DNA of 64,000 nt from Escherichia coli (lineage in GTDB: Bacteria > Pseudomonadota > Gammaproteobacteria > Enterobacterales > Enterobacteriaceae): assembly GCF_041886205.1 (NCBI RefSeq), contig NZ_CP169029.1; one strand, 5' to 3'. The position numbers are program-made. Positions 12,001 to 15,000 of this stretch are shown here, piece after piece; position 1 is the stretch's first letter; each line of letters starts with the position of its first letter.

Positions 12001-15000
12001 TTGTGTATAAGAAGCATTGATTCGTGCATCGCCATATTTATCTAAATAACAATTTCTGTTTACCAGTCTATGTTGAAAATCAATTTCGTACTGCTCTTCT
12101 GCTGAATATTTTTTAAATCTGTCAGCATGGTTTTTTAATAACGTATAGGGGGCGCTGTCAGAATTGCTTTCCCTTTGTTCAATCACTTCCTGGGCTGCCA
12201 TGCACACAAATGCACCGCAACTTTGGCTTAAATATTGCTGAAGATCGGCATGTAAAAATATTATCTCGGGTTCAGCTAAATGAACTTTTATATTATTATT
12301 CGACATTTCTCCCATGAGTTCAGAATTAAAACTATTAATGACACGCTTAAGTGAATTTTCTTTATCATGGCCTAGTGCGCGCAATGAGTTGAATATGACG
12401 CATTTTATTTGTTGTGTATTATTTTTTTCATTTACTATTTTCTGTAGCGAAACTAATATCCAGTGTCCGCCAGTATTTATGGGGAATAACTGGACTGCTT
12501 TCGGCCATGATGGATCGCTCTTAATATTTTCATTGAGAGCGTCTTCCAGGTGAGTTCTGGTGGAGTAGGGGACGTAGAGACCAGTAGGATAATTGACTTC
12601 AGTATTTTTTGCATTAGCGGCGATCTTCTGAAGATAGCAATCTATTTCATCTGTGGTTAATTGACGATTTTTATCCCAGAAGTTTGTCCCATCGCTCAGT
12701 TCATTATTCTCATCATTTAAAAGCACCTTCGAAAGCGACTGTTTTTCAGATATAAGAGGAATGTCCTCACCGATAATTGTCATTAATTTCGAAGGGGAGA
12801 ATAGCTTTTTGAACAGGAGATTATCTGAATTATCCGGACCAGCTGGTTTAAGGGGAGAGTTGGTTGCGGCATGTGCCAAATTATATAATTTTAAACAAGC
12901 ATTTTTGATAAGTCGGATAATCGATAGGGTCTCATTTGTTGGGTTTCTAACAATATGGTAAAGAATATCTTCAGCTTCTTTTCCAAATTTATCATAACCT
13001 AACGCAATATTATGCAGTAACTCAATGCTTTCTTCATCTCCGGATAACGCTGTTTTTTTTAAAGACTGCAGTAATTCCTTGGTCACAGTAAATTTTTCTG
13101 CAAATGTCTGACTGAGTTGCTTTTGAGATAATTGACAATAATTGCTGACAACTGTAACCATCATGGGCTCCTTTTAGTTGCAAAGGTTGTGCTGAATCAA
13201 GATAAATAGAGGCCTTATTGCTCTGAATATAGTGCGTGAGGAGATGAATAAATATCAAAAATCGCTCAATATGCCCGTGTGGGTGGATATATGTAGCGCG
13301 GGTTGCGATAACAGGGCAAGTTTCGCCCTGTTTTTAATAATAAGCAGAGTTAAACGTTAAACACGGTGAAATCATTCGCCAGTTCAGTCGCCGGGAAAAT
13401 TGACCTGCATTCACGTAACAGGTGCTGACAACCTTTGTCATCATAGCGCGAGCTGACGTGGGTAATGATTAGCTTACCGACTCCAGCCTCACGGGCCAGT
13501 GTCGCAGCCTGGCGTGTAGAGCTATGGCCGCGACTATTGGCTTTGGCTTCCATGGTTATATCCAGCGTCGCTTCGTGCACCATGACATCGACACCTTTAG
13601 CCAGGTCAAGTGCGGCATCGCAGGGGCCGGTATCGCCGAAAATAGCGAGCGCTTTACCTGGCACTGGAGCAGCTAAGTAATCTGCGCCGTTAATCTGCCT
13701 TCCATCTTCCAACGTGATTGTTTTGCCCGCTTTTAATTCCTGAAACAGTGGGCCAGGCGGCACGCCAGCAGCTTTTAATGCCTGGGCATTTAATGCACCC
13801 GGTTTATCATGTTCTTCAATACGATAGCCATAACATTCCAGTGGGTGTTCCATCGGATAAGCGGTCACTTTGCGCAGGCCATCATCGAAAATTTCGCCAG
13901 CGCCAATTTCGACAATTTCCAGCGGATAATCGGTCCATGAGCCGCTAATCCGCAGCGCGGTTTCCACAAATTCACGGATACCTTGCGGACCATAAATCGT
14001 TAAGGGTTGGATAATGCCTGACATAGAACGACTGCACAGCAAGCCGGGTAAACCAAAAAGATGATCGCCATGAAGGTGACTGATAAAAATCTTGTCCAGT
14101 TTTCCAGGGTTAAAGGCGGTATGCAGTAGCTGATGCTGGGTGCCTTCACCGCAGTCAAACAACCAAAGTCCGCTCTGGGTCGGATGTTGCAGGTTAAGCA
14201 ATATTGCCGTGACATTGCGCGTGCGGGTTGGCACACCGGCCGAAGTACCTAAAAAAATTAATTCCATGAGTTCATCACGTTTCAAAAAATATTCCGGCTA
14301 GTATAAGGCATACATCTAAAAGGAGAGCATTATGATTGAATGGCAAGATCTGCATCACTCTGAATTATCGGTTTCCCAGCTTTATGCCTTATTACAACTG
14401 CGTTGCGCGGTGTTTGTTGTCGAGCAGAATTGCCCTTATCAGGATATCGATGGTGATGATTTGACGGGGGATAATCGCCATATTCTCGGTTGGAAAAATG
14501 ATGAACTGGTGGCATATGCGAGGATTCTGAAAAGTGATGATGATCTTGAGCCGGTCGTTATTGGTCGGGTGATTGTCAGTGAAGCGTTGCGTGGCGAAAA
14601 AGTGGGGCAGCAACTGATGAGTAAAACCCTCGACACCTGCACGCATCACTGGCCTGATAAGCCTGTTTACCTCGGGGCGCAGGCGCATCTGCAAAACTTC
14701 TACCAGAGTTTCGGTTTTATCCCTGTGACGGAGGTCTATGAAGAAGATGGTATCCCACACATTGGGATGGCACGCGAGGTAATTCAGGCGTAATCAATAA
14801 CCCTTGTCTATAGTTAGTGACAGGTTTTACGCAAATGGAGAACGAGAATGTCTAATCAGTTTGGTGATACACGTATCGATGACGACCTGACGCTGCTTAG
14901 TGAAACACTGGAAGAGGTGCTCCGCTCCTCTGGCGATCCCGCCGATCAGAAATATGTTGAGCTGAAAGCGCGTGCTGAAAAAGCGCTGGATGATGTGAAA

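Follow-up and report, generated by a model that had tools for sequence, protein, structure and literature searches.

The hairpin between rbn and elaD in Escherichia coli is best explained as the stem-loop defining where the rbn mRNA ends, with that end probably produced by Rho and trimming on the rbn strand, with a possible further role as a backstop on the plus strand, and a probability of roughly 0.6 was given to this reading. The window (the whole stretch of DNA analysed, 64 kb) is E. coli chromosome, and over a 701-nt query (12900-13600) it was 100% identical to that of strain LHM10-1, whose RefSeq annotation supplied the gene coordinates. The spacer is 185 nt long (13165-13349) and, as the sequence-only reading had said, rbn and elaD are both on the minus strand; the GC content of elaD is 35 - 41%, against 51 - 54% for rbn. 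By coordinate mapping, the counterparts in K-12 (NC_000913.3) lie on the (+) strand, with rbn at 2381608-2382525, elaD at 2382713-2383924 and the hairpin at 2382543-2382565, on the same (+) strand as the two genes. The features needed at the outset are as follows.

13350-14267, minus strand: rbn (ribonuclease BN) coding sequence, from the RefSeq annotation of the 100%-identical LHM10-1, translation checked
13350-13352, minus strand: rbn stop codon TAA, from the same RefSeq annotation, translation checked
11944-13164, minus strand: elaD (deubiquitinase), from the RefSeq annotation of LHM10-1; part of the replacement segment of PMC1847702
13310-13332: hairpin with stem AACAGGGC/GCCCTGTT, 8 bp, by sequence inspection
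13310-13332, minus strand (the rbn strand): stem-loop AACAGGGCGA-AAC-UUGCCCUGUU, by folding; PMC10687069 Supplementary Data 3 has this fold for K-12, with equal energy
13331-13335, plus strand: T5 run (TTTTT), with the last T of the stem counted in; tail score 3.94, d = +4.0

On the plus strand positions 13311-13335 read ACAGGGC-AAGTTTC-GCCCTGT-TTTT, just as had been reported, and the stem extends to 8 bp. The sequence-only reading was mistaken in placing a U run before the hairpin on the minus strand, where there is an A-run, the T5 that stands 3' of the plus-strand hairpin being an A5 (AAAAA) run 5' of the rbn-strand hairpin. The hairpin starts 17 nt 3' of the rbn stop codon, which is the position where a 3' element of rbn would be expected. 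As RNA, the minus strand forms 10 pairs (G.U and A-U included) closed by an AAC loop, at -14.6 kcal/mol with z = -4.4 and none of 200 shuffles as good, whereas the plus strand forms 8 pairs with a 7-nt loop, at -12.9 kcal/mol with z = -2.25 and five of 200 shuffles as good; of the two folds, that of the rbn strand is the stronger and the more significant. A census of the window for perfect hairpins (stem of at least 7 bp with at least 4 G-C pairs, loop of 3 - 8 nt) returned 20, against 12.8 +/- 2.9 in dinucleotide shuffles, and the hairpin taken by itself is thus weak evidence.

The argument for the rbn strand comes chiefly from published maps of RNA ends in K-12. In the TRS study (Nat Commun 2023, PMC10687069), rbn has a 'Primary' 3' terminus at 2382565-2382573 with its dominant position at 2382571, and a dataset re-analysed separately in the same paper places the terminus at 2382564-2382572, dominant at 2382568, the adjusted p-values being 6.6e-10, 1.1e-11 and 2.1e-5. 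The fold which that study gives for the terminus is identical in sequence and structure to the hairpin of the window, with the same -14.6 kcal/mol and a maximum U-tract of 2.

13302-13311, minus strand: window equivalent of the rbn primary 3' terminus peak (K-12 2382564-2382573), from PMC10687069 Supplementary Data 2, 3 and 4

By coordinate mapping, the dominant K-12 positions 2382568 and 2382571 correspond to 13307 and 13304 in the window, giving an rbn 3'UTR of about 46 nt. Setting the mapped termini against the coordinates of the hairpin indicates that rbn mRNAs in K-12 end 3 - 6 nt past the stem, which is 5 - 8 nt beyond its G-C core; the latter distance also fits direct intrinsic termination, so that Rho with trimming and weak intrinsic termination are inseparable on this evidence. 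No 3' end was called at K-12 2382400-2382999 on either strand in the Term-seq data of Adams et al. 2021 (PMC7815308), and the TERMITe and SMRT-Cappable-seq tables hold no entry for the locus, which makes the rbn end a low-abundance signal from one analysis pipeline. One of the two possibilities raised in the sequence-only reading, that the hairpin is a weak or atypical rbn terminator, is thereby borne out as regards the place where rbn transcripts end (PMC10687069). The same reading had stated that it would be overturned if rbn transcripts ended at the hairpin despite the missing U tail and no plus-strand transcript ended there, and the half of this concerning rbn is what was found (PMC10687069).

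The intrinsic terminator potential of the two strands was compared with a score of the d'Aubenton-Carafa type, in which hairpin energy per length is combined with a weighted T-tail. Three of the 40 hairpin-strand readings in the 64-kb window were positive.

10261-10279, plus strand: positive reading, d = +38.2
38977-39006, minus strand: positive reading, d = +17.7
13310-13332, plus strand: positive reading, the rbn-elaD spacer hairpin, d = +4.0

The plus-strand reading of the spacer hairpin has 6 - 8 pairs, a 7-nt loop and the tail UUUUUAAUAAU (UUUUU then AAUAAU; tail score 3.94), while on the minus strand the tail score is 2.15 and d = -22.0. Depending on the register, the minus-strand tail is UUAUCGCA or AUCGCAAC, with tail scores of 0.5 - 2.2 and values of d from -22.0 to -49.9. 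A U-rich tract of about 7 - 8 nt 3' of the stem is absent from the rbn strand, where the 8 nt that follow the G-C core (UUAUCGCA) include only 3 U. Scored in this way, the plus strand alone resembles an intrinsic terminator, and does so marginally; an automated terminator scan of the window left the hairpin unflagged. With d = +4.0 on the plus strand against -22.0 on the minus strand, the earlier argument that the hairpin has the polarity of a plus-strand terminator is formally right, but this does not make the plus strand the functional one.

Two things bear on how the rbn end might arise, namely the composition of the rbn-strand spacer past the hairpin and published data on Rho.

13165-13309, minus strand: C-rich, G-poor untranslated tract, candidate Rho loading (rut) region, by composition

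The 145 nt past the hairpin contain 41 C and 21 G (C/G 1.95), and the first 40 nt contain 16 C and 6 G (C/G 2.67). DirectRNA-seq with and without bicyclomycin (PMC7815308 Supplementary file 2) identified a Rho termination region at K-12 2382642 (+), with a Rho score of 3.24 (p = 5e-5) and upstream/downstream reads of 57/31 in untreated cells and 46/81 with bicyclomycin. By coordinate mapping this position falls at about 13233 in the window, within the spacer and some 77 nt past the hairpin, although the windows used for the Rho data are 800 nt long and the signal could be due to Rho acting on transcripts from the elaD promoter rather than on read-through from rbn. A sequence of events can be proposed in which RNA polymerase leaving rbn would mostly pass the hairpin, Rho would load on the C-rich untranslated spacer RNA and terminate transcription in the spacer before early elaD or within it, and the tail would afterwards be shortened by PNPase and RNase II as far as the hairpin, which would protect the rbn mRNA; weak intrinsic termination at UUAUCG may contribute to the rbn ends. 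Dar and Sorek 2018 (PMC6061677) found that Rho-dependent transcripts of E. coli have steady-state 3' ends directly after stable stem-loops that are without U-rich tails, that C is enriched over G downstream of such ends, and that PNPase and RNase II trim back to the stem-loop. They also reported that an upstream A-tract statistically marks intrinsic terminators and not Rho-type termini, and that mixed cases are possible in which inefficient intrinsic terminators have Rho as back-up. The rbn hairpin resembles this class in that a stable stem-loop lacking a U-rich tail comes just before a precise steady-state 3' end, and in having more C than G and a bicyclomycin-sensitive region downstream, but differs from it in its upstream A5 tract, a feature which the class statistically lacks. 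With that exception the rbn hairpin fits their description.

On the opposite strand transcription was found to run across elaD in the direction of rbn.

12313-13113, plus strand: antisense-to-elaD transcribed stretch, window equivalent of a K-12 stretch of 800 nt (274 reads), from PMC7815308 Supplementary file 2
12892-12921, plus strand: sigma-70 promoter-like site TAAACA-18-GATAAT, inside elaD and antisense to it; also in K-12

A second Rho region is given in PMC7815308 at K-12 2382764 (-), labelled 'antisense elaD', with a Rho score of 3.6 and upstream/downstream reads of 274/21 in untreated cells and 503/139 with bicyclomycin; by coordinate mapping it lies at about 13113 in the window, approximately 220 nt before the hairpin. 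These DirectRNA-seq reads establish that elaD is indeed transcribed in antisense, toward rbn, and more so than in sense, but they also show that in untreated cells the antisense reads have dropped 13-fold some 220 nt before the hairpin, partly through Rho. The plus strand has more C than G at 12960-13050. Among the termini listed in PMC10687069 and PMC7815308 there is no 3' end at the T-run (K-12 2382500-2382559), expression there being low. Accordingly, of the other possibility in the sequence-only reading, that the hairpin terminates an unannotated transcript antisense to the 5' region of elaD, the transcript (274 reads per 800 nt) has proved real while its ending at the T-run has gained no listed terminus. 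With bicyclomycin, the 139 downstream antisense reads compare with about 141 predicted if the T-run, 224 nt beyond, stopped all read-through, a figure obtained by rough arithmetic on the assumption of uniform read density and serving as a consistency check only. The promoter-like site at 12892-12921 is a possible source of the antisense RNA, but plus-strand promoter-like sites within elaD do not exceed the frequency seen in shuffles. AT-rich foreign genes are described as sources of spurious intragenic transcription by Singh et al. 2014 (PMC3923964). It is plausible, then, that the A5 tract upstream of the stem, being U5 on the other strand, would make the hairpin a marginal intrinsic terminator for plus-strand transcripts, and that the T-run may stop the few antisense-to-elaD transcripts which Rho lets through, before they enter rbn. 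Since antisense transcription is real but already reduced before the hairpin, and no end is listed at the T-run, such a backstop role is possible only.

The phylogenetic distribution of the hairpin ties it to the elaD segment. It is present in 4,496 of 5,426 complete E. coli genomes, once per genome (median one place), and in 3,842 of the 4,496 genomes that carry it the identity is at least 99% over 63 nt. It is confined to elaD-carrying E. coli, the elaD replacement segment being missing from about 930 of the 5,426 genomes. In elaD-less genomes such as that of APEC O18, homology with elaD-carrying strains is lost at two points, exactly at the rbn stop codon and 27 nt ahead of the yfbK stop; in place of a 1,493-nt segment (the tail of yfbK, elaD and the hairpin-bearing spacer) these genomes have 144 nt with a REP-like palindrome, lying between convergent rbn and yfbK. 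The positions of these breaks show that the hairpin belongs to the elaD segment. A search of genome contigs for Rbn yielded at least 80 loci, few of them in Escherichia but with E. albertii and one elaD-less E. coli among them, as well as Citrobacter and Enterobacter; none of the 80 Rbn-encoding loci listed has elaD within 3 kb or this particular hairpin after rbn, which makes an analysis of covariation across species impossible. Among E. coli the spacer is about 98% identical, and seven aligned sequences show no change in the stem core or in the A5/T5 run, but the conservation of the hairpin does not exceed that of the spacer around it, and conservation is uninformative on its function. A C-to-T variant (RM9088, mip270) keeps a U.G pair on the rbn strand and gives A.C on the plus strand, and one G-to-T variant removes two inner pairs on the rbn strand; the wobble-preserving variant would favour the rbn strand but is anecdotal, and too little to argue from. 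A more elaborate and distinctly tentative proposal is that the hairpin serves as a boundary element with two mechanisms, on the border of an AT-rich segment acquired horizontally, marking and protecting the rbn end after Rho action on one strand and providing with its U-run an intrinsic backstop against elaD antisense transcription entering rbn on the other, and that its gain or loss went with that of the elaD segment, which has its boundary exactly at the rbn stop codon.

Several other explanations have to be set against the reading in which the hairpin marks an rbn end made by Rho and trimming. The likeliest of them proposes that the hairpin with UUAUCG is a weak, atypical Rho-independent terminator of rbn that releases some polymerases while the rest read on toward elaD. 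The mapped ends, 5 - 8 nt after the G-C core, are at the usual distance of release, a stable stem with an upstream A-tract is typical of intrinsic terminators, and inefficient intrinsic terminators backed by Rho are mentioned by Dar and Sorek (PMC6061677); however, 3 U in the 8 nt after the core (UUAUCGCA), a score of -22.0, and the Rho-dependent region and C-rich tract just downstream all argue the other way, and this explanation is considered possible but unlikely to be the right one. Rather improbable is a main role on the plus strand, in which the hairpin would be the intrinsic terminator of a noncoding RNA antisense to the elaD 5' region and the rbn end would be incidental. It draws on the T-run and positive score, both of which are found on the plus strand only, on the documented antisense transcription of elaD in excess of sense (PMC7815308), and on the plus-strand promoter-like sites inside elaD in both the window and K-12. 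Yet the 13-fold loss of antisense reads precedes the hairpin by about 220 nt in untreated cells and involves Rho, the termini listed include none at the T-run, the score is marginal (5 U then AAUAAU, a 7-nt loop) with a weaker fold than that of the rbn strand, and the element follows the rbn stop by 17 nt, at the place to which the rbn end maps. Rfam covariance models run over 11500-15000 at E-values up to 10 gave no match overlapping the spacer at 13165-13349, which also speaks against a noncoding RNA of known type there, the matches across the region being chance ones to eukaryotic and archaeal small-RNA models only.

Convergence of rbn sense and elaD antisense transcription (PMC7815308) also invites comparison with a collision-type bidirectional terminator, at which the hairpin would pause polymerases from both sides and head-on collisions would set the ends with no need of a U-tract or of Rho. 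Such a class is known, and bioRxiv 10.1101/2022.10.23.513370 describes hairpins between convergent units that 'do not resemble intrinsic terminators'. Against this, there is Rho dependence nearby on both strands, both transcripts are rare and collisions would therefore be infrequent, and of the overlapping 3' ends expected on both strands one is documented, that of the rbn strand, all of which leaves this explanation very little weight. Least credible of all is a palindrome due to chance, or one that binds a protein as DNA upstream of elaD, in either case with no function in RNA. Some 13 such perfect hairpins are to be met per 64 kb of shuffled sequence, and conservation here equals that of the rest of the spacer, but an RNA 3' end maps at the base of the hairpin in two datasets (PMC10687069), and the hairpin is both placed 17 nt after a stop codon and one of the three positive terminator readings in the window.

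The stem-loop at the rbn end is of an ordinary, well-described kind, and the RNA end itself is already in published tables. With canonical intrinsic terminators it shares a GC-rich stem-loop, an upstream A-tract, a location just after a stop codon and, on the plus strand, U5 after the stem; it differs from them in that the strand with the mapped 3' end has a degenerate U-tract (UUAUCGCA) and the strand with the U-run has neither a known gene nor a mapped 3' end. Bidirectional terminators (Ju et al. 2019, as summarised in bioRxiv 10.1101/2022.10.23.513370) likewise consist of one hairpin with transcription from both sides, an A-run on one side and a T-run on the other. As far as that summary goes, the differences are that the opposing unit in the present case is pervasive antisense transcription inside an AT-rich gene and not a gene, that a 3' end is documented on one strand, and that Rho acts near the hairpin on both. 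REP elements are also intergenic palindromes at the 3' ends of genes, and the equivalent rbn-yfbK spacer of elaD-less E. coli has a REP-like palindrome, but the rbn hairpin occurs in a single copy per genome and has no REP consensus. The locus offers a worked example of a U-run on the 'wrong' side of a hairpin failing to identify the functional strand, and stem-loops without U that remain after Rho termination are common ends of E. coli mRNAs. If the plus-strand backstop is true, the hairpin would be one more terminator insulating a core gene from the spurious transcription of an AT-rich foreign gene, which would aid the annotation of transcription-unit boundaries and would be conceptually not new.

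A few further candidates in and around the spacer were considered and set aside. A small plus-strand open reading frame at 13232-13360 (42 aa from GTG, or 38 aa from an ATG at 13244) traverses the hairpin and T-run and terminates within rbn, and there is no spacing between its AGGAG and the ATG. The plus-strand sequence GCGATAACAG resembles GCCGATAAC, a sigma-28 -10-like sequence that other genera have in their rbn spacer, but GCGATAACAG is in the opposite orientation and has no -35, and the likeness was put down to chance. A sigma-28 SELEX peak (Shimada 2017) is not a feature of the hairpin, since it falls inside rbn, about 200 nt into the gene by an estimated genome-version offset. The table that supplied the rbn terminus (PMC10687069 Supplementary Data 2) contains two further entries beginning '23825...', at 238256x-238259x.

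The stretch between the nuo genes and rbn varies among E. coli strains (compare K-12, APEC O18 and strain B2C). From nuoN to elaD the source strain carries yfbM and one frameshifted hypothetical gene and nothing else, yfbK, yfbL, yfbN, yfbO and yfbP all being absent (window about 10300-11940), and the GC content of the nuoN-elaD DNA lies between 29% and 47% (29-45% over 10650-11850).

A replacement segment that houses elaD was delimited at window 11917-13349, equivalent to 1457-2949 of the K-12 locus (L003) and 2854-2997 of the APEC O18 locus (L002). Comparison of the loci showed that the K-12 side, of 1,493 nt, takes in the end of yfbK (27 nt), elaD itself and the spacer bearing the hairpin at which the rbn mRNA ends (13310-13332), in place of which strains without elaD have 144 nt with a REP-like palindrome. 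One breakpoint coincides exactly with the stop codon of rbn; the other lies 27 nt ahead of the yfbK stop. The ElaD protein of the source strain (gene at 11944-13164) is only 93% identical to that of K-12, and elaD is annotated as frameshifted in several of the genomes sampled, in line with Catic et al. (2007), who reported pseudogenisation.

Three further features were recorded in and around elaD:

11896-11925, a short way past the elaD stop: perfect, strong 13-bp hairpin, -24 kcal/mol
13174-13190, minus strand: CAGCACAACCTTTGCAA, spotted by eye some 10 nt ahead of the elaD start codon
13232-13360, plus strand: 42-aa ORF (38 aa if begun at ATG 13244, with AGGAG directly before)

The hairpin at 11896-11925 lacks a T-run whichever strand is read (scores -24 and -33) and is probably another 3'-end stem-loop of the U-less kind; a Rho region has been listed in the 3' part of elaD (K-12 coordinate 2383800, +; Adams 2021). 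When set against the sigma-54 -24/-12 consensus (TGGCAC-N5-TTGCA), CAGCACAACCTTTGCAA agrees in spacing and at 9 of the 12 positions, one G of the -24 element being missing, and the likeness is probably due to chance. The small ORF, which crosses the rbn hairpin and stops within the 3' end of rbn, was judged to be non-coding.

Two independent IS1-associated deletions end beside or within the rbn hairpin (L001 2248-3000; L091 790-1500). In strain B2C the hairpin is retained and the IS1 end abuts the equivalent of window 13297, while in strain STS63-2-E it abuts window 13326/13327 and the left arm and loop are gone, so that rbn is there without the hairpin.

Among the matches listed (L008-L044, about 3919-4000), a co-directional gene lies about 65 nt 3' of rbn in Citrobacter, Enterobacter, Kluyvera and other genera. 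This gene, which starts MDNFQKDIDDRANLTLSNRFEL, is presumably CheV-like and is absent in E. coli. In the spacer after rbn in those genera (again among the matches listed, L008-L044), the motif GCCGATAAC, which looks like a sigma-28 -10 element, is conserved. A sigma-28 SELEX peak has been reported within E. coli rbn (Shimada 2017).
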